Source: a virus. Taken from it: a DNA stretch of 64,000 bases. The stretch covers positions 1 through 64,000 of the IMG/VR virus record IMGVR_UViG_3300002920_000014; one strand, 5' to 3'. A program made the position numbers and the translations under genes. The notes under the pieces are model-generated. The model had not been told where the DNA came from and searched no databases. It worked only from the letters and a program-made list of their open reading frames with translations. Of this stretch, positions 3,094 through 58,912 are shown in pieces. Position 1 is the stretch's first letter; every line of letters begins with the position of its first letter.

Positions 3094-6000
3094 ATGGCTG
3101 CTGGTGTAAGTGGTTTTAATCTAGAAGTTCTTTCGGAACTGGTTAGTAAGCTAGACCAAGTTTATGTCAAACTTAGTCAGGTCGAGGAAAGACTTGCTAC
3201 AATAAGCTCTACTGATCTAACTTTAACCATATCTGGCAGAACAGCAGAGACGCTTAACACTTTAGTTCAAAATTTTGAAAAACTTCAAAACTTAGACTCT
3301 GAGTCCGTATCTAATATTGCTAAGAATCTTTCTAATGCTTTAGATCAGCTCAATAAGTCTGATATTAATGACAGGCTTTATAAGTTGCAGTTACCTGAAA
3401 CTTTCTTACAGTCTGCTAAAGGTCTCAATGCTTTCGCATCTGCTATAGCCAGACTTGGTAGAAGTGATGTTGACGTTGGTTTGTCTATAGCTAAGTTATC
3501 ATTCTCACTTAAATCATTAGTCGATATAGACGTATCTTCTATAAAATCAGACAATTTTAATGTGTTTTTTGAAGTCGGTAAGAGTTTAGCATCTTTTGCG
3601 CTTTCTTTTAACCGTCTTTCTAGGCTATCAGAGAGTGATTTTAGCAACATAACCACTAACGTTATGAATTTTATTAAAAACTTTTCTTCTTTTAAAATAC
3701 CACAAACTTTTGATAGACAAATATTAGACATATCTAAGTCTGTTTCTAATATAGCGTCTGTCTTTAAAATCACTAGTAGTTTACCACTTGATTATGATAT
3801 TACACCATTTTTTGTTATTCTCGATGATTTTATAGACTATTTAGCTCTTGCATCAGATGAAATATCAAAAATAGAAAAAGTTGATTTACTTTTTGTTATC
3901 TCTAGATTGTCCCGTAATATGATTGATTTTATAAAGTTAGCTGGTTCAAAGTCGGATAATCTAAACGTAAAAAATATGTTTTCTGTTTTTGATGATCTTA
4001 TACATTATTTCAGCACTATATCTGATAAAATAAAATCCGTGCAAGATCTTAATGATTTGTCCGTTTTATTCAAGTCTTTTTCACAGTTAGCAAATTTTTT
4101 TAGAGTTGCTAAATCAATAGCGGTAGACTTTGATATAAAGGGTGTAATTGCAATTTTTGAGTATTTTATTGGTTACATTATTAGGGTGTCTAATCGTGTA
4201 TCAAAATTAGAAGGCATAGATAGTTTATCTTCTATATTCAAATATTTTTCTCAACTAGGTGAATTCTCAAAGTCAACAAGAACAATTACTGGATCTTTTG
4301 ATTTCACCCCCATATTTACTGTTCTTGATCAATTTATACAGTTTTTAATTAAAACATCTGACAACGTTCCAAAATTAGATAGTATAAAAGATATTATATC
4401 ATCTTTAAGATTGTTTATTAAAGTTTCAGAATTAACAATTGCTTTAGAAAATAATTCTTCTATCACTAAAAATAATCTAACTCACATGTTTGATTCACTA
4501 AAAATTTTTATAGATATTATATCTGAAGAATTAAAAGTTAATACTAGAGTAGTAGATAATCTTACAACTTTACGCATTATCTTAGAATCTATACGTGATT
4601 TGTTCAGATTATCTAAAATAGTCAGCAACGATCCAGATTATTATAAAAAGTTAGCAGATTTGGTAAGTATAATACCTATATTAAATAATTTTACAAACCA
4701 ACTTAAGCAAATTCAAACTGTACCAAATGAATCTGTTGTTTTCTTTAAAAAGTTGTCTGAAGTTATTAGAAATATAAGCTATATTACTACAATAAAAGAA
4801 AATTTTAATGTTTCAATTATAGACAAAATTATTAATCAACTTATTACGACAATAGCTAATGTCTATACTAAGTTAAACAATGGACAACTTATTAAATTCG
4901 ATCAAATATTCCCTAGTATTCAATCCTTAATACTATCCATAAGAAGATTTATTAATACTATTATTTCTAATAAAGGACTATTAGAAGATTCAAGTAAAGT
5001 TGAAACCATATTTAAGAATATGAAAAAACTATTAGATGGGATACCCGATTTAATAGGATCAGTGGTCGGACCTATTAAATTTACTACAGATATAGGTGCT
5101 AGATCTGTAGCCAGGATATTAAAAGACGTAGGTCCTCTTTTAACTTTTATATTTAAGGACCTAGTAAATATAATAGACGAACAAACTATAAGTACTAACC
5201 TAAAAAACTTGCTTAAAAGAGGACTATTGTTACGATTGACAGCAGCGGCTTTTGGTATTTTTATGGACGCCATAATGATGCCTTTCAAAGCCATAGAAAA
5301 TGCAAAATTAGGGGGTATTGGCGACTTTACTAGCGGATTTGGTAGATTACTTGAAGGGGTATCTTCATTTTCTAGATTCATAAAAAGTTTGCTTGAAATA
5401 AACCTAAAGTTCGATAAAACCACTTTTATAGAGATAACGAAAATCGTTGGATTTATAGGTCTACAAGTCGGTCTTTTAATTTTAGCATTAGCTCCTGTGG
5501 CTTTTTTAAACCCTACAAAGCTATCTGCACTGGGTGATATAAGTAAATCGTTTAGGTACGTACTCGATTTCTTTTCGTTTGTCAACTCTCCCGATTTTGT
5601 TTCAAAAGCTGGTATAGCAGTAGCCCTTAGTGTTGGCACACTATTAAATAAATTCTTTAAAACAGTTGTAGCTGGTGGGTTCATAACATATTTGTTACTT
5701 ATTTTTGCTAGTATGGCCAAGTTAGGTGGTTCTGACTTAAAGTATGTACCTGATGTTATTAAATCTTTGAAATACGTAGGAGAATTTATAAGATCTTTAA
5801 ACGATAACATATTCAGTAACGCTAATTTAATAACCGATGGTCTTCTTAAATCATTAAACGAATATACCAAGATATTTAGAGCCATAAGTCAAGGTGGGTT
5901 TGTAATTTCCATTCTTATAGCGCTTGGGATTTTAACTCGTTTAGCGGGAGAAAACACAAAATTCTTACCCGATGTTATTAAATCGCTAAGCAGCATATCT

Positions 6001-9000
6001 GATTTTATTACACAGTTACAATCTAATGTGTTTAAAAATGCTAATTTAATAACAGACGGATTATTAGGCAGTTTAAACACTAGCACTAAAACTTTTAGAG
6101 CAATATCCCAAAGTGGTTTTATAACTTCTTTGTTCTTGTTCTTAGGGGTGATGAGTAAGTTAGCTGGTCAAAATATGGCTTACTTACCAGATACTATAAT
6201 ATCTCTAAAAGTAATATTTGATTTTGTAGACTCTATGCAACAGACTGTGTTCAGAAACGCCAATATTGTAACAGATGGTTTGTTGAGTAATCTAACACAA
6301 TCAACTCAAATATTTAGAGCCACAGTTCAATCTGGATTTATAGGTTCTATTTTGCTGTTCATAGGGTTTATGTCTAAAATAGGTGGCGTTAACTTACAAT
6401 TCGCACCTGAAGTCTTAAAGAATCTTTATGTTATATTCTCTTTTGTAGAAAAACTTCAAACTACTGTATTTAAATCGGTCAATTTGATTACTGATGGTCT
6501 ACTTCAAGATTTAACCAGATCTACTAAGACTTTTAACGCTTTATCACAAAGTGGGTTTATAAACTCTATATTGTTAGTTATAGGTGTAATGTCAAGACTA
6601 GGTGGTGAGGACTTACAATATGCGCCAGCTGTTCTGAACAGTTTATCCTCTGTTTTTAACTTTATTGAAGGTCTTCAGACTAACGTATTTAAATCTGCAA
6701 ACATTATCAAAGATGGACTCTTTGAGGACCTAACAAAAACTACTAAAATGTTTAACGCTTTATCACAAGGAGGATTTGTATCTTCTTTGTTACTTGTGAT
6801 AGGGGTTTTATCAAAACTTGGCGGTTCTGGTCTAAAAGACATACCGAGTGTTTTATCCTCACTACCTTATTTAGGATCTTTCATAGATTCTATAAACTCT
6901 ACCGTGTTTAGGTCGGCTAACTTAATAAGTGATGGTTTGTTAGCAGATCTTAATAAAAATACTAAAGTGTTCAGAGCGTTGACTCAAAGTGGGTTTTTAT
7001 CTTCAATTCTTTTGGCTCTTGCCGCGTTCTCAAAACTTGCCGGCGTTAACACTCAGTACGTAGGTCCGGTATTACAAGCCTTGCCAGCTATAGGCACACT
7101 TATAGAGTCTTTGAACCGTACAATATTTTCATCGGCCAATTTAATACAAGACTGGTTATTAAAAGATTTTAATGATCAGATTAAGATGTATAGATCATTG
7201 ACTCAAGGGGGTTTTGTTGCTGCATTACTTGGCTTAATAGGAGCTATGGCACGTCTTGGCGGTTCTGCTTTACAATATGTACCTGGTATACTATCGTCGT
7301 TACCAGTTTTAGCTGATTTCTTGTCACAATTAAGAAAAACTATATTTGCTAATGCCGATCTCGTAACTGAAAGTGGACCTTTAGAAGAAGTAAATAAGAC
7401 TGCTAAAAAATTCAGAGCGTTGACACAAGGTGGTTTTCTGTCGTCAATATTGCTGATGATAGGTGTGATGACTCGAATTGGTGGTTCTAATCTACAATAC
7501 GCAGATAAAGCAGCTGTTGCAATAAAAGCTGTTACGGACTTTCTGTCTGCTGTTTCTCGCAACGTAACTAGTAGCTTTCTGGACTACATACCTATTATAT
7601 CGGATATTAAGAGAGCTTCTGAGCTATTTAAAGCTATAGTTCAGTCAGGTCTTTTTTCTCTTGCAGCTGTAGTGTTTTTATTGGCGACGCGCTTGTCTAA
7701 CGTTTCTGCTATAACTTCTATGGTTAATTTTTTTGATTCTATGAGTAAGTTGTACGTATCTCTCAAATCGTCTGCTAAAAATGACTTATCAATGGAGAAC
7801 GTTAAAACTTACTTCGCTCAAGTAGACTTTATACTTAATTCTATACGTCGACTAAAACTTAGTAAAAATGTAGATAGTTCTTTTTTGAACTCTGTAATTG
7901 GTCTCATATCAGCATTAAGTAACATAAAAGTCGATTTACCTGATACTCTTACTAGAATTGCTCCTGCTTTTAAAGATTTTGTTAGTTCGTTTAACAGTCT
8001 CAACATAGACGATAGATCATCAAAGTCTATAGTTAGAATTATAGATTCGTTAAAAAACATACCTAGAAACATACCTAATATACCAAAAATAGATGTAAAT
8101 GCACCAAAGTCTACGAACACTGCATATAGAAACTCTATAACGGAACTTAATAGTCTTCTCTCTATCATAGATAGAGTTACTTCAGCTGTTAAGTCTATGT
8201 TCCAAGCTTTTGCTTCTTTAACTAATATAGTTGGTTTAGTAAATAACGTGTCTAGAAGTGTAGTTGAGCTAGGCAGAAACGTTAGAGAAGTCGGAGACAA
8301 CATCATGCAGGCTGGCCAAAATATGGGCCAAGTATTTACTGGATTTCTCCGTAATCAAACGTTCTCTACAGTATCTGAATTTGATAAAATAGGTACTCAA
8401 CTTCAAGTTTTTGGTGGTCTTACAAATGAAGCCAGACGTGAAGCAGAAGATTTTGCACTTCAAATAGGCAAAAATTACCCGTTATCTGCTAATGAAGCAC
8501 TACAAGCTACAACCGATCTTATAAAAGCTGGTCAAAGTTTAGCTTCTACTAAATTCATTCTACCTAGTGCTTCTGATTTAGCGGCTCTTAGTGGGTCTTC
8601 TTTACCCGACGCCACTAATTTGTTAATCTTAGCAGAAAGTACTTTTAGCTCTTTTAGAGATGGCGTAGAAGGATCTTTTGAAAACATAGATAAAGCAGCT
8701 GACATACTCTCTGCGGCAGCAGACGCTAGTACAGCTTCGGTTCAAAGTTTAGGTGAGGGTTTAGCTAACGTATCATCAACTGCTAATATTGCAGGTATTA
8801 CTCTTGAAGAAACAGCCGCCATACTTGCTATACTGGATGAAAGCGGAAAGAAAGGAGCGGAAGGTGGTACGGCGCTTGCATCTATGTTTAACAGTTTAAC
8901 AAAACCAAAAACACAAAAGGCGCTAAGTGATTTACAAAGAACTGTTAGAGGTTTTGGTAAAGAGTTCAAAGATTTAAATGTAAGTTTATACAATCCTGAT

Positions 9001-43385: not shown

Positions 43386-43796
43386 TTAACCCTCCTGACT
43401 AAGAATATTTTGTACATCTGCCGCATGTTCTGCTTCAGCAGATTGTAAATACTCCAGGAGAACTCCAGGTATGTTTGTGCCAATCCACAAAGCTGGATTG
43501 GGAGCAGGCCACAACGTAACTGGGTATTTAGGATCAATATGTTTAGATACAAAAGAATGCCACGACTTTGCAAACTTGACATTCTTAGACACAGCCCCAC
43601 TATTCTGCATCTGTGTCGCAACGTACACCAACAACTCATCTAAATCTAATATATCATTCTCCAACAAAAAGGAAGGTTTTTCAACCTTCACATTTTCTCG
43701 GACTGTCTCAATTACCTGTTTTTCAACAACTGGCGGACGCTTCAACTCCCGTACAATGAACAACAGTAGCATGAGTAAAATAATTAGGATTTCCAT
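43386..43796 (-). CDS. N-terminally membrane-anchored hypothetical protein (backbone paralog of 52786..53121)
   Basis: Hydrophobic N-terminus. Aligns by eye with the island ORF: LLENDILDLDELLVYV with ILEDGVVDLHELLVEV, KFAKSWHSFV with KLMKAWENFV, and PALWIGTNIPGVLLEYL with PVLWVGDKIPPPILDRL. Confidence 0.55.
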   Translation of the reverse strand: MEILIILLMLLLFIVRELKRPPVVEKQVIETVRENVKVEKPSFLLENDILDLDELLVYVATQMQNSGAVSKNVKFAKSWHSFVSKHIDPKYPVTLWPAPNPALWIGTNIPGVLLEYLQSAEAEHAADVQNILSQEG

Positions 43797-50207: not shown

Positions 50208-50456
50208 AATCTATCTCCGCGCCACTTTGGGCTGTCGCTACACCCTGCCACCAATTAAGCCGGTGACCAGCCAGTGGAGCTGTGGGGATTTGCACCCCAA
50301 TCCAGCCCGCCTGCCTTGTCAAGGCCGCCCCCTATCCTGTGCGCCTTCACGGGGGTCTTACGCGGCTCAGCGGGCTGTCGACACTATACCAGCCCCGTAT
50401 TTTGCGCGTGTAGGATGCGCGCCCCCCTTGAATCGACTTAGCGCCTTAATGCCAGT

Positions 50457-52785: not shown

Positions 52786-53121
52786 TTAGTTTCTCGGAGA
52801 AAGTCTATCCAAAATGGGCGGGGGGATCTTGTCCCCTACCCATAAAACCGGTGTTTGTCCCCTCAGACCCACTACGGGGTACTCTTCTGGGGAGACAAAC
52901 GCCCCAACGAAATTTTCCCAAGCTTTCATAAGCTTGGGGTCGTCTGAGACGCCCCCATATTCGTGGAGGAGGGTTATCACCTCCACGAGGAGCTCGTGGA
53001 GGTCCACAACGCCATCTTCAAGAATGTAAGACGGCGCCACAACCCTCTCAACTACTTTTTCAACCTCAATCACTTTCTCAATCACTTTTGGCGCAAAAAA
53101 GCGCCGAAAAAACTTGAACAT
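52786..53121 (-). CDS. hypothetical protein; GC-rich paralog of backbone gene 43386..43796
   Basis: TAAGGAGGACAC upstream of the ATG. Collinear similarity to 43386..43796 over most of its length (see that entry). Confidence 0.6.
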   Translation of the reverse strand: MFKFFRRFFAPKVIEKVIEVEKVVERVVAPSYILEDGVVDLHELLVEVITLLHEYGGVSDDPKLMKAWENFVGAFVSPEEYPVVGLRGQTPVLWVGDKIPPPILDRLSPRN

Positions 53122-54183: not shown

Positions 54184-54657
54184 CTAGTCGAAGTCGTATT
54201 CGTATTCCGAGTCGTCAAGGTCCAAGTCAAGGTAGGTGACTTTTGAAAGAGCCTTCTTTATGAACGCTCTTACCTCACCGTATACCGGTCCGCACTGGTT
54301 GAACCAGTGCCAACTGGAATAAGTAGTCAACTTGGACGCAAAGAACTTAAGCGCCGCCCCCACTTGGGGCGGTAGAGGACTTGGGTTACAACCGTACCAG
54401 GCTAGACGGCCTTCAAAGACGCGAATGCGTCCGACGTATGCTGATGAGCGTTTACCCGTACTGTCTACATTGGCCATACGGACGGCGTATATGTTTTCCG
54501 TGTTCTTAACAAACGCCAGCGTCATAAAGCTGGCGTTTGTTATGTTGCCATCTTCACGCTCGACTTCTACAAGTAAGCTAAACCGCCCCGTCGCTTTTTC
54601 TTCTTTTTTGGCGGCTTGGCGGGCGTTTAGGGCGTTTATGTATTGCTTGGCGTTCAT
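54184..54657 (-). CDS. hypothetical protein with acidic C-terminus (GC-rich island)
   Basis: ATG at 54657 is preceded by TAAGGAGGCTATC. The longer ORF start at 54705 lacks an SD. Confidence 0.55.
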   Translation of the reverse strand: MNAKQYINALNARQAAKKEEKATGRFSLLVEVEREDGNITNASFMTLAFVKNTENIYAVRMANVDSTGKRSSAYVGRIRVFEGRLAWYGCNPSPLPPQVGAALKFFASKLTTYSSWHWFNQCGPVYGEVRAFIKKALSKVTYLDLDLDDSEYEYDFD

Positions 54658-54705
54658 GATAGCCTCCTTATGGTTAACGGTTAGCAGTGCCTCAATCTGA
54701 GACAC

Positions 54706-55517
54706 TAGTAAGGGCCGTAACGTATGGCACGTTACGGCCCTTACTATTGGCTCGATTGATACGGGCTACTGTGACGGGCGTCACAGTAGCCCTAATCTTG
54801 TTGATTGCCCCCCTCGGGGTCAACGGGCGGGAGTCCTCATACCCTATGCCAGCTTACCCTCGTACATTGTACTACTCTCAGACTGGCCCGCGCCTCGCCC
54901 CAGCTAGTTGACTTACGATACCTTAAGTCCCTGTTACTGAAACTTACGCGGCTACTCTCTTACTACTCCTGCCGGTTGTCTTTTGCCCGTCTATAGCCAC
55001 TTGAATGACTTACCGTCACCCGTATGGGCTATTCGTGGCTATGGCCCGCGGGCGGGGTAACCCCCGCCCACAAGTAGCGCTAACCGTCTGCGCCTCAGCT
55101 ACGCCCGCGGCCAGCCCAAAACTGGAACTTGTTCCAGTGCTGGTAACGTCTCGGCCCTCACAGCTCGCCTTACGCTGTTCCGAGTTTCGAGGCGTCCCGT
55201 ATACCGCGTCTAGGTATCTAGACTTACGGGTCATCCCGCCCACTCGGGCGACAGCTTCCAGTGACGCTCTTAGGGGCGTCACCGTTAAGGGCGGCCGTTC
55301 CCAGTTCACCGCTGGGCCTCGGGGGCTTTCACCCCGAGCTAGGCTCGCCGTCCTCTAATCATGCGCTTGGGGGGTAACCCGCCCCAAGGGCTTTTCGAGG
55401 GACTTACTCGCGCGGGCGCATTCCGCGCATTAGGCAGCGCTCAATTGTTAAGGAGCGTTTGGGGGCGTTCCGTCTACCCCCTCGGGGGGGCTGGCCCGTC
55501 TGCCAGCCCGTCTTGAC
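54706..55517 (-). ncRNA. candidate large structured RNA or ~0.8 kb structured 5' leader (bounds approximate)
   Basis: There is no convincing ORF on the transcribed strand. At least 12 GC-rich hairpins are present, including a perfect 16-bp stem at 54707-54745 and a 13-bp stem at 54763-54792. GGGGTAACCC-type loops recur. A sigma70-like promoter lies immediately upstream. Confidence 0.45.
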
Positions 55518-55523
55518 ACTGAC

Positions 55524-55552
55524 ATACTACCTCGCCCCGTTAGCGGAGTCAA
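55524..55552 (-). promoter_or_regulatory. sigma70-like promoter (TTGACT-17 nt-TAGTAT)
   Basis: The -35 is at 55552-55547 and the -10 at 55529-55524. An AT-rich, UP-like stretch lies upstream on the - strand. It points into the structured region. Confidence 0.55.
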
Positions 55553-55605
55553 CTGTTTAGCCGTTTTCTTTAATCTGTTTCTCATGTTTTTCATTTTGGG
55601 GCGTC

Positions 55606-55800
55606 GCCAGCTGCTCCAGCAACGGCAGTCTCCAGCTGCTCCAGCAACGGCAGTCTCCAGCTGCTCCAGCAACGGCAGTCTCCAGCTGTTCCAACAACGG
55701 GCGTCGCCCGCTGTTCCAACAACGGGGGCGACTGCTCCAGCAACGGGGGCGACTGCTCCAGCAACGGCAGTCTCCAGCTGCTCCAGCAACGGGGGGCGAC
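55606..55800. repeat. eight tandem iteron-like repeats (21-25-nt period)
   Basis: The core GCTG(C/T)TCCA(G/A)CAACGG starts at 55610, 55635, 55660, 55685, 55710, ~55731, ~55752 and 55777. Confidence 0.9.
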
Positions 55801-55992
55801 TGCTTTTACCAGTCTTTAGGGGTGTATTCTTGTTCTGTTTTTTGTTGTGTGTACTGTCTGTTACTTTTTAAGTGTCAAGGCTATGTGTATATTACTAACA
55901 TATAGCTTTGTTACAATTATTATGGAATATTCCGAAATGTTTGAATCACGTTGTGACAAACGTATCGAGATTTTTTATGAATTTTTTAATTA

Positions 55993-56022
55993 TTGACTTT
56001 TGATACTAGTATGTGGTATAAT
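55993..56022 (+). promoter_or_regulatory. strong sigma70-like promoter (TTGACT-18 nt-TATAAT, TGG extended -10)
   Basis: The -35 is at 55993-55998 and the -10 at 56017-56022. It shares ATGTGGTATAATTAATTA with the promoter at 61822-61851. Confidence 0.65.
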
Positions 56023-56048
56023 TAATTAAATTTATATGGGGGGTTGTT

Positions 56049-56453
56049 ATGGGAAGACCAGCACTATCTTTGACGGACTATTTAAATCTTGCTAAAGACT
56101 GCAATCTTGAGTTTATTGGCCCTATGCCTGCTGATTCATCTGATAGTTCTCCTGCTTGGCGTTGTTTAATTACTGGTATTATTCAACATAAAAGTTATAA
56201 TGCAGTCAAAGCCACTTATCCTTATGGAAACCGATACCAAAAAGACTTTGAGAAGCAACTTGATAAATATCACTCTTTGGCTAAAAAACTTGGAATTACT
56301 TTTATTCATGAACCTGGTAAATTCCCTTATAATGTCAAAGTAGTTTGCTCCTGGTTAGGTCGTAATGGTAACATAGTACGTTGCTCTTATCACGATTTGG
56401 CGTACCAAACTATCCCTCGTCGACTTCTTGAGGAGCTTGGGATTGAAGACTGA
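56049..56453 (+). CDS. hypothetical protein
   Basis: 134-aa ORF with GGGGGG upstream. It is the first gene of the + strand block. Confidence 0.55.
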   Translation: MGRPALSLTDYLNLAKDCNLEFIGPMPADSSDSSPAWRCLITGIIQHKSYNAVKATYPYGNRYQKDFEKQLDKYHSLAKKLGITFIHEPGKFPYNVKVVCSWLGRNGNIVRCSYHDLAYQTIPRRLLEELGIED

Positions 56454-56859: not shown

Positions 56860-57459
56860 ATGTCTACGACTAAAGCTGCTCGTTTGGCAAAAGTCAATTT
56901 AAAAAATGAAATACTTCGCTGTGCTACTATCGACGGGTTGTCTGTGCCGGCTATAGCGGATAGTTTGGGTATTTCGGAGACAGTTGTGAAGTCCGCTCTT
57001 GACGAGGCTCAACGACAAGCTGATTTACTTCATACTGATTTGGTTACCCGATATAAGATTCTTAATCTGAGTAGGTTAAATTCCTTGTATGAGGCTGTTG
57101 AACCTTACGCTCTTGGGGAGGTTGAGGTGTTGGGGGGTGCCCCAAGTCCACAGCACGCTAAGTTGGCTCTTGACATCATCAAGCAAGTAGATGCTATGTT
57201 GCCTAAATTAATCACCAAAGAAGACTCAGATGTTAAGAAGATGACGATTACTATCTCCAGAGATGACGATATCTATAAAGCGGCTAGTATGCACTTAGAC
57301 CCAGGTCTTCTTGTTCAGGTTCTTAAAGACAATTACGAAGTTGATTCTGCTTACATGCCTGAAATTAATACTCCCACTGTTGTAACTGATCCCTCTGTGT
57401 TCGGGGAAAGTTTTGAGCGATTACATAGTGCCATAGAGGATGATCTTAATGTCACTTAA
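56860..57459 (+). CDS. terminase small subunit candidate (HTH)
   Basis: N-terminal helix-turn-helix (GLSVPAIADSLGISETVVKSAL). It lies directly upstream of TerL and overlaps it. Confidence 0.55.
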   Translation: MSTTKAARLAKVNLKNEILRCATIDGLSVPAIADSLGISETVVKSALDEAQRQADLLHTDLVTRYKILNLSRLNSLYEAVEPYALGEVEVLGGAPSPQHAKLALDIIKQVDAMLPKLITKEDSDVKKMTITISRDDDIYKAASMHLDPGLLVQVLKDNYEVDSAYMPEINTPTVVTDPSVFGESFERLHSAIEDDLNVT

Positions 57460-58912
57460 AGCTGATGATGTTGAGAGTAAATTAATTGAGTTGGCTCGAT
57501 CATCCCCTTATTATTTTATTTGGTATGTATCAGGTCATCAACCTGCTACCCACCATGTTAAGTGGCTTAAGCTTTTGTTCTCTGAGGAACACACTCGCAT
57601 AAACATTGTTGCTCCTCGTGAGAGTGCCAAGACAACGATTCTTGTCTATTCTCTTCTTTGGTTGATGTCGATAAACCCCCTTTGGACTAATGCTATTGTT
57701 TCAGTTTCAAAAAGTCAAGCTCGTGAACGTTTAACTTTAATTCGCACTATTATTGAGACAAATCAGCGGTACAGGAATGTGTTTCCCCACATATTCATCG
57801 ACGAAAATCGTTCTTCAACTCAGGATACTTTTTCTCTTTGGGATAGCTCTTATCCAAGTTACGCTGCTTGGATGACAGAAGTTACTCAAAAGGGTTCATT
57901 AAAAGATCCCACACTGTTCGTTACCGGGGCTCTTGGTAAAGGTTTCATTGGTCGTCGTATTAGTGGATGGCTAGTTATGGATGACATTGTGGATGAGAGT
58001 TTGTCTAACCCCGCTGGTCAAGATAAGATGATGAGTTATATTATGACTACTCTCGAGCCTTGTATTAAAGCCAGTGGTAAAATCATTAACATCGGAACTC
58101 GTTGGATTATTAATGACGTATACGAGCGTTTGATGAACAACCCAAAGTGGACGAGTTCTGTAACAAGGGGCATAACTTACAACGAAGACGGTCAACCTGT
58201 GTCTTATTGGCCTGAGTTTTGGAGTCTTGAACGTTTGGAGGATAAACGGCGTATCATTAATGATGACCGTATTTTTGGCGTTATGTACTTGTGTGATGTT
58301 CATGCTAACGCTCTTGAACTTTTTAATTCTAAGACGGCTTCTAAAGACATACCTCATCCTTTGCCACCTTTTATTGGCGTATATGTGAGTACTGATTGGG
58401 CGACTTCTACTAAAGAACGCGCAGATTATACTGTGTTTGCTGCGTTAGGTGTTGATGCTCTTCACAATATTTATCTTTTGGATATGGAGCGCCGAAAAGA
58501 ACCTATTGATACCCTCATGGAATCTTTCTATGCTTTTGTTGATAGAACTTCGGCTCTGTACGGAAGATTGGATGCTGTTATTACCGAGAATGTAGCTTTC
58601 CAAAGTGTTATTTATGGCTTAGTTGCATCCGCCCGTCCTGACATACCTATAGTCGGTATTGTTCCTAAGGGAGATAAGACCCAGAGAGCGCGTGTTCTTG
58701 CTAATTATGCACTTAATGATAAGTTTTATGTTAATCAACGTATTGATCCTTATGTTCTCAAGGCGCTCAATGACGAGCTTGTCAATTTTGGTATCCATCC
58801 TCATGATGACACCGTGGATGCTTTGTCGCTTTTGTTTCAACACACAAAACTTATTTCAGTTGAGGCTAAAGTCGTTAAAGTTTTTCCTGGTAAACGACTA
58901 ACTCGTATTTGA
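57440..58912 (+). CDS. terminase large subunit
   Basis: The Walker A-like motif is VAPRESAKTT and Walker B is WLVMDDIVDE. The C-terminal RNase H-like nuclease acidic residues are seen in VSTDWATS and HPHDDTVDAL. Confidence 0.85.
   Translation: MILMSLKADDVESKLIELARSSPYYFIWYVSGHQPATHHVKWLKLLFSEEHTRINIVAPRESAKTTILVYSLLWLMSINPLWTNAIVSVSKSQARERLTLIRTIIETNQRYRNVFPHIFIDENRSSTQDTFSLWDSSYPSYAAWMTEVTQKGSLKDPTLFVTGALGKGFIGRRISGWLVMDDIVDESLSNPAGQDKMMSYIMTTLEPCIKASGKIINIGTRWIINDVYERLMNNPKWTSSVTRGITYNEDGQPVSYWPEFWSLERLEDKRRIINDDRIFGVMYLCDVHANALELFNSKTASKDIPHPLPPFIGVYVSTDWATSTKERADYTVFAALGVDALHNIYLLDMERRKEPIDTLMESFYAFVDRTSALYGRLDAVITENVAFQSVIYGLVASARPDIPIVGIVPKGDKTQRARVLANYALNDKFYVNQRIDPYVLKALNDELVNFGIHPHDDTVDALSLLFQHTKLISVEAKVVKVFPGKRLTRI

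Follow-up and report, generated by a model that had tools for sequence, protein, structure and literature searches.

We examined a tandem array of eight conserved cores in the gap between the leftward and rightward genes of an uncultivated, long-tailed phage. The array was real, unique in the genome and non-coding. It was possibly a DNA protein-binding array, either operator or iteron-like, belonging to the leftward early control region. This was our preferred, tentative reading. The window, meaning the whole stretch of DNA that was analysed, was the first 64 kb of the single 73,752-bp contig. The array and its parts were located as follows.

55603..55799, unstranded: tandem array of eight CTGYTCCARCAACGG cores (pattern search and Tandem Repeats Finder).
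55686..55725, unstranded: variant units 4 and 5, CTGTTCCAACAACGG, carrying the paired change C4>T with G9>A.
55800..55825, unstranded: decayed ninth unit, CTGCTTTTAC followed by CAGTCTTTAG (read from the sequence).

The pattern CTGYTCCARCAACGG was searched on the + strand. Matches with 0 mismatches started at 55611, 55636, 55661, 55686, 55711, 55732, 55753 and 55778, and the eight 15-nt cores spanned 55611-55792. Dinucleotide shuffles gave 0.27 matches on average, and none of 100 reached eight. This confirmed the eight tandem cores described in an earlier note on this DNA. Tandem Repeats Finder reported a period of 25 over 55603-55792, with 7.9 copies and a score of 219. The distances from core start to core start were exactly 25, 25, 25, 25, 21, 21 and 25 nt, as that note had listed with one value approximate. 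Two distances occurred because the spacers were either 10 nt or 6 nt long (10, 10, 10, 10, 6, 6 and 10 nt in order). The earlier note had described a 16-nt core. Fifteen of these positions were borne out, but the leading G was not constant and was replaced by A in units 6 and 7. It had also described two alternating spacer types. This did not survive a unit-by-unit comparison, which gave three forms arranged in blocks. CAGTCTCCAG was present four times, GCGTCGCCCG once (with GCGTCGCCAG at the left edge), and GGGCGA twice (with GGGGCGA at the right edge). The copy number of eight was taken from one metagenomic assembly.

The cores differed at 0-2 of 15 positions, and the spacer forms differed in length and at no fewer than 4 of 10 positions. 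The core was better conserved than the spacers, and therefore the constraint sits on the core. The core contained a small dyad, TGC-TCCA-GCA. In units 4 and 5 it read TGT-TCCA-ACA, so that the dyad TGY-TCCA-RCA was kept. Identical units adjoined each other (1-3, 4-5 and 6-7), and the array faded into AT-rich DNA via the decayed ninth unit. No further copy of CTGYTCCARCAACGG was found in the 64-kb window at up to 2 mismatches. No further or inverted copy was found in the whole genome of about 73.7 kb, even at 3 mismatches. An inverted pair of CTTGACAC flanked the array (55512 and 55872). It was present in exactly two genome copies, about the number expected by chance, and one copy coincided with the -10/start region of the promoter-like site directly left of the array. 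For these two reasons the pair was given no meaning.

All six frames were open across the array because the repeat unit contained no stop codon. The ORFs across it had no Shine-Dalgarno sequence and no Pfam match, and the 25-nt period shifted the frame at each unit. A coding reading was therefore rejected, and the earlier description of the overlapping ORFs as translated repeats was upheld. Other classes of element were also considered. No known RNA family was matched in Rfam over the array or the hairpin-rich leader to its left (E up to 1). An array of sigma-54 promoters (TGGCACG-N4-TTGCW) gave no match inside 55603-55800 at up to 3 mismatches; the nearest reading by eye, TGGAGAC-N5-TTGCT, was one base too long. 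In CRISPR-type arrays, repeats of at least about 23 nt alternate with unique spacers whose length is similar. Here, the core was 15 nt and the 6-10 nt spacers were themselves repeated. Transposon ends or inverted terminal copies were rejected because the genome held no second or inverted copy of the motif.

The ends of the contig overlapped by 114 bp, giving a circular assembly of about 73.6 kb, and the overlap lay at a position unrelated to the array. The leftward genes began at about 55.5 kb and the rightward genes at about 56.0 kb. The minimum of the cumulative GC skew was at 55-56 kb, coinciding with the array and with the point of divergence. A GC-rich island filled with ORFans extended over about 50.0-55.85 kb (47-56% GC vs about 39%), and the array was its right-hand edge. 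The phage carried its own PolA-type polymerase, helicase, exonuclease and DnaG/Toprim primase on the - strand at 25-39 kb. The features around the array were as follows.

54184..54657, - strand: first gene in the leftward unit to have a strong ribosome-binding site (start 54657), encoding an ORFan protein of 157 aa.
54660..55520, - strand: hairpin field, a GC-rich, ORF-free leader of 860 nt belonging to the leftward unit (fold z-scores).
55524..55552, - strand: P_L2, a promoter-like site directly left of the array, TTGACT-17-TAGTAT with an A-rich upstream tract (consensus scan).
55826..56030, unstranded: AT-rich tract with divergent promoters (base composition).
55889..55916, - strand: P_L1, a putative promoter-like site right of the array, TTGTAA-16-TAATAT (alignment with the nearest relative, L011).
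55993..56022, + strand: late promoter, TTGACT-18-TATAAT with an extended -10 TG, 11/12 (consensus scan; nearly identical in L011).
56049..56453, + strand: first late gene, 134 aa, conserved beside TerS/TerL in all relatives examined.
56860..57459, + strand: TerS candidate (weak N-terminal match to a sigma-70 region 4-like helix-turn-helix, synteny and L011 alignment).
57440..58912, + strand: TerL (phrog_38, E 1.5e-59).

Within the AT-rich tract, 55820-56020 had a GC content of 29%, placing it within the lowest 2.7% of the 200-bp windows of the genome. The hairpin field gave fold z-scores of -8.2 on the - strand and -7.8 on the + strand. It contained many perfect palindromes and five copies of GTAAGT on the - strand. 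No Rfam family match and no credible ORF were found in 54660-55520. Searches of 5.8 billion clustered proteins and of 1.84 billion representatives found no relative of the 157-aa protein, and HMMER returned the protein itself only. Its AlphaFold2 model had a pLDDT of 48 and was unusable. Two further observations were made in the island. A mini tmRNA-like element was found at its left edge (50272-50396, - strand), matching the Rfam tmRNA model with 37.2 bits (gathering score 47) and E 1.8e-13. The match was confined to the tRNA-like domain, namely the acceptor stem GGGGCUG/CAGCUCC with a G3.U pair and the T arm. In this element, 48 nt replaced the part of about 294 nt that holds the tag-coding sequence and pseudoknots, and ARAGORN made no call. 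In addition, the island gene at 52786-53121 was a paralogue, 40% identical, of the backbone gene at 43386-43796.

The array overlapped neither promoter core. The distances given in the earlier note agreed with our measurements. The array lay 51-59 nt from the -35 of the - strand promoter-like site at 55552 (about 55 nt in that note), and its end was 201 nt from the -35 of the + strand promoter at 55993 (about 200 nt). The TerS candidate started at 56860, 1.07 kb away, and TerL at 57440, in line with the proposed 1.1 kb. That note had mentioned neither the conserved leftward promoter-like site right of the array nor the hairpin potential of the - strand. P_L1 matched the consensus at 8 of 12 positions, below the threshold of the consensus scanner. 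In L011, both hexamers were kept and the spacer was not (TTGTAA-17-TAATAT). A genuine promoter would be expected to show this pattern. Transcription of the array on the - strand is probable, since the conserved P_L1 lies to its right and is directed towards it. The stretch from P_L1 to the array contained no terminator-like site. The transcript of the array would form the head of a leader running through the 860-nt hairpin field to the gene at 54657.

Close relatives were searched for with a late-promoter 23-mer, TerL and the first late protein, and only L011 was close. The TerL of this 4.6-kb Logan contig was 88% identical, and all other TerL relatives were at most 48% identical. DNA identity between L011 and the window was 75% from 55926 rightwards, with weaker similarity back to about 55851. 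Left of this homology, L011 also had a GC-rich, hairpin-rich leader, but it was unrelated in sequence. No core was found in the 4.6 kb of L011 at up to 3 mismatches, including the 565 nt upstream of its late operon. The homology ended right of the array and the array was absent from the L011 sequence. The array therefore belonged with the variable, early part of the control region rather than with the late part, which is conserved. In L011, the first leftward gene (1-44) had a strong ribosome-binding site at its start, together with a coding repeat of 9 nt, (GCC ACC CAG)n, read as MKATQATQATQ, and the contig ended inside this gene. No similar array was found in the viral contigs, metagenome contigs, phage records and plasmids searched. 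The single match in prokaryote genomes arose by chance within the coding sequence of a Glaciecola pilin, where it encoded PATATAAPATAT.

More distant relatives were compared at the same landmark. L015, a JGI contig of 82.5 kb (3300028195), had a TerL 42% identical and carried about ten TTTCACG(TTTTTT) boxes at 4450-4690, spaced 21, 30, 31 and 36 bp, in a divergent gap of 1 kb. Repeat arrays at the divergent-gap landmark therefore recur in the group. No repeat array was found in the 1.08-kb divergent gap of L019. In L016 (TerL 33% identical), an actin-like ALP_N protein of the ParM/AlfA type adjoined the divergent region (5871-7004), and no ALP_N homologue was found in the genome of the window. 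L013 carried large perfect palindromes with 32-bp arms about 300 nt upstream of the late operon (8088-8180 and 3824-3870). The Logan contig L014, from the same phage, broke exactly inside one of them. The ends of five relatives' contigs lay 1.9-3.2 kb upstream of TerL and were considered as genome ends. This was rejected since the one break examined was inside a 32-bp-arm palindrome, and a palindrome is a typical place for an assembly break.

The comparison with relatives bore on two of the alternatives. The array might be a packaging signal, with repeats on which TerS docks, placed at a pac/cos site or bordering a terminal repeat. Lambda cosB, SPP1 pac and the T7 junction repeats are examples of repeat arrays in or close to cut sites, and this array was 1.07 kb upstream of the TerS candidate, where the late side begins. 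However, the helix-turn-helix region of TerS (residues 13-60) was almost identical in L011. A docking site should then persist in L011, and its absence from the 4.6 kb, including the equivalent upstream region, was the main argument against the terminase reading. It was not proof because only 4.6 kb of L011 sequence was available. In addition, the conserved block that includes the packaging module did not extend to the array, terS was two genes and a promoter away, and neither terS nor terL contained the motif. The array is thus probably not a packaging signal. Terminase recognition was the least supported of the three roles offered in the earlier note and was judged highly improbable; origin iterons and a regulator array were both rated as more probable. 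Alternatively, the array could be a neutral minisatellite, in which a short GC-rich unit without function had multiplied by replication slippage or unequal recombination. Identical units were adjacent, as from recent local duplication, the right edge held a decayed unit, everything left of 55926 was unconserved even in the nearest relative, and no collection searched contained the array. However, one core was common to three spacer forms and was better conserved than they were, and both substitutions in the variant units fell on pairing partners. An analogous array was also present at the same landmark in L015, and phage genomes tolerate little inert DNA. A minisatellite was considered unlikely.

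The conserved P_L1 and the hairpin potential of the - strand led us to add an alternative at the RNA level. Leftward transcription from P_L1 would place the array at the start of a structured early leader of about 1.2 kb. Its eight hairpins, presenting 12 GGA motifs over about 200 nt, would serve as sites for multiple copies of an RNA-binding protein, or would have a part in protecting or processing the early transcript. On the - strand, each unit formed a 5-bp hairpin, GUUGC-UGGA-GCAGC, with a UGGA loop. All eight units paired at 5 of 5 positions, and the variation consisted of one two-sided change (C-G to U-A) and one change from G-C to G-U. Paired positions in the helix were 100% on the - strand vs 74% on the + strand, because a C.A mismatch replaced the G.U pair on the latter. 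The hairpin energy per unit was modest, at -5.4 kcal/mol on the - strand vs -3.7 on the + strand. The 12 GGA motifs were all on the - strand, with none on the + strand. The conserved promoter and the G.U pairing each pointed, independently, to the - strand. The leftward aim of P_L1, its hexamers kept in L011, and the lack of a terminator-like site before the array were consistent with this alternative. So was the remaining leader, which was hairpin-dense in this phage and in L011, and the irregular 25- or 21-nt spacing would be immaterial to independent hairpins. However, the covariation statistics were weak, since 27 of 500 shuffles did as well. The paired C4>T/G9>A change was probably a single event that was then duplicated into adjacent units, so that it counted as one evolutionary event. 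Folding of the whole array gave a z-score of only -3.0. Two of the eight unit hairpins had high probability, and the others were mostly outcompeted. P_L1 also matched the consensus at only 8 of 12 positions, Rfam gave no match, including the CsrB and Rsm families, and such arrays have no known function in phage leaders. An RNA hairpin array was judged somewhat unlikely. Improbable, in our assessment, was a phage-made decoy RNA, in which the GGA hairpins of the early leftward transcript would soak up a putative host protein of the CsrA/RsmA type, or another that reads GGA or SD sequences. Sequestration would then reprogramme host translation. No phage-encoded sponge of the Csr type was found in a narrow literature search. 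The probability left beyond the DNA-binding, RNA hairpin, minisatellite and packaging readings went to something else.

Several observations favoured the DNA protein-binding array: the number of copies, a constraint that fell on the core more than on the spacer, a motif unique in the genome, the AT-rich tract and promoters nearby, and precedents. The non-coding nature of the array, its place at the GC-skew minimum and the TTTCACG array of L015 also spoke for it. The eight adjacent units would be cis-acting sites for one sequence-specific DNA-binding protein in a fast-evolving leftward early control region. The binder would probably be encoded by the phage, and may be an ORFan protein of the island. 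Full occupancy would give a nucleoprotein block between P_L1 and P_L2, beside the tract of 29% GC. This block could tune or block leftward early transcription. Alternatively, the array could be an iteron-like platform that helps to open the neighbouring AT-rich DNA for replication. Taken separately, a regulator's array was thought unlikely, and an origin slightly more so. The variation among the units counted against DNA binding, as it fitted an RNA hairpin of the - strand better than a DNA dyad. Also against it were the lack of overlap with either promoter core, the absence of the array from L011 and the array-free gap of L019.

The origin version of the DNA-binding reading was compared with the features of iterons. 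Origins of this kind have several direct repeats of about 17-22 bp (PMC4980987), and here eight 15-bp cores in 21- or 25-bp units were found. An adjacent AT-rich unwinding element was also present (55820-56020, 29% GC). Arrays of seven to nine copies beside such an element are the textbook iteron layout (PMC4980987). However, whole-turn phasing was absent, since 25 bp is about 2.4 turns and differences of 4 bp rotate neighbouring sites by about 137 degrees. Cooperative binding to iterons is lost when sites shift by half a turn (PMC4980987). DnaA boxes were absent within several kb of the array, the nearest at up to 1 mismatch being at 57666 or 51277, and no IHF consensus was found in 55300-56100. 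DnaA and IHF sites are optional in some iteron systems. No Rep-, ParB-, repressor- or initiator-like protein was recognised in the island with Pfam and PHROG, and the island proteins were ORFans. Replisomes with their own PolA, DnaG-type primase and helicase usually use transcription-activated origins, not iterons. The classical iteron version was weakened by the mixed 25/21 spacing, the lack of DnaA and IHF sites, the lack of a recognisable initiator and the T7-type replisome. The origin iterons proposed in the earlier note were a possible role, but uniform spacing and DnaA boxes were missing and no initiator-like gene was recognised nearby.

The array is a clean example of a familiar general type of repeat array, and its lineage has almost no relatives. 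Most early genes of this phage lineage are ORFans and it otherwise defies annotation, but the array marks its control hub. If the array serves as an origin or operator, it would give a handle for finding the cognate DNA-binding protein among these ORFans. If it acts through RNA hairpins, an early phage leader would contain a repeated protein-binding module of an unusual type. Either way, the attractive but poorly supported idea of a packaging signal was weakened, and the element was assigned to the variable early side of the control region, not to its conserved late side.

Several known systems resembled the array in part. The TerS-binding repeats of lambda (cosB R sites) and of SPP1/SF6 (pacL/pacR) are likewise repeated short sites upstream of terS. 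In contrast, the closest relative had a near-identical TerS DNA-binding domain but no array in its 4.6 kb, and the array here was parted from terS by a promoter and two genes. On the - strand the array had about one GGA per 17 nt, a density similar to that of CsrB, a sponge RNA of the CsrB/RsmZ type (PMC7652899). Of the 12 GGA motifs, 8 would be in the loops of the predicted short hairpins, with stems of at most 5 bp. However, the loop here was UGGA/CUGGAG and lacked the conserved A of ANGGAN. The motif CUGGAG also departed from the consensus ANGGAN / CAGGA(U/A/C)G (PMC7652899). Unlike these sponges, the array was within a long leader and was not a stand-alone terminated sRNA, and no Csr or Rsm family was matched in Rfam. 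The TTTCACG array of L015, from the same TerL group, also consisted of direct repeats in a non-coding gap between leftward and rightward blocks. It was AT-rich and unrelated in sequence, and lay about 4.3 kb from the first late gene vs about 0.3 kb here.

The iterons of theta origins (R6K gamma ori with seven 22-bp repeats, RK2 oriV, and P1 oriR/incA) are direct repeats with a conserved core and an AT-rich neighbour, as was the array here. Phage lambda ori is a further example of an iteron array. The copy number of such arrays is in the range of 4-9, which was similar to the eight found here. Each unit here had a small internal dyad, and the array sat at the strand-skew switch. However, iterons are spaced uniformly at about two helical turns, whereas the spacing here was a mixture of 25 and 21 bp. 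The array also differed in its setting, in which no Rep gene, DnaA boxes or IHF site were found, in a phage carrying a T7-type replisome.
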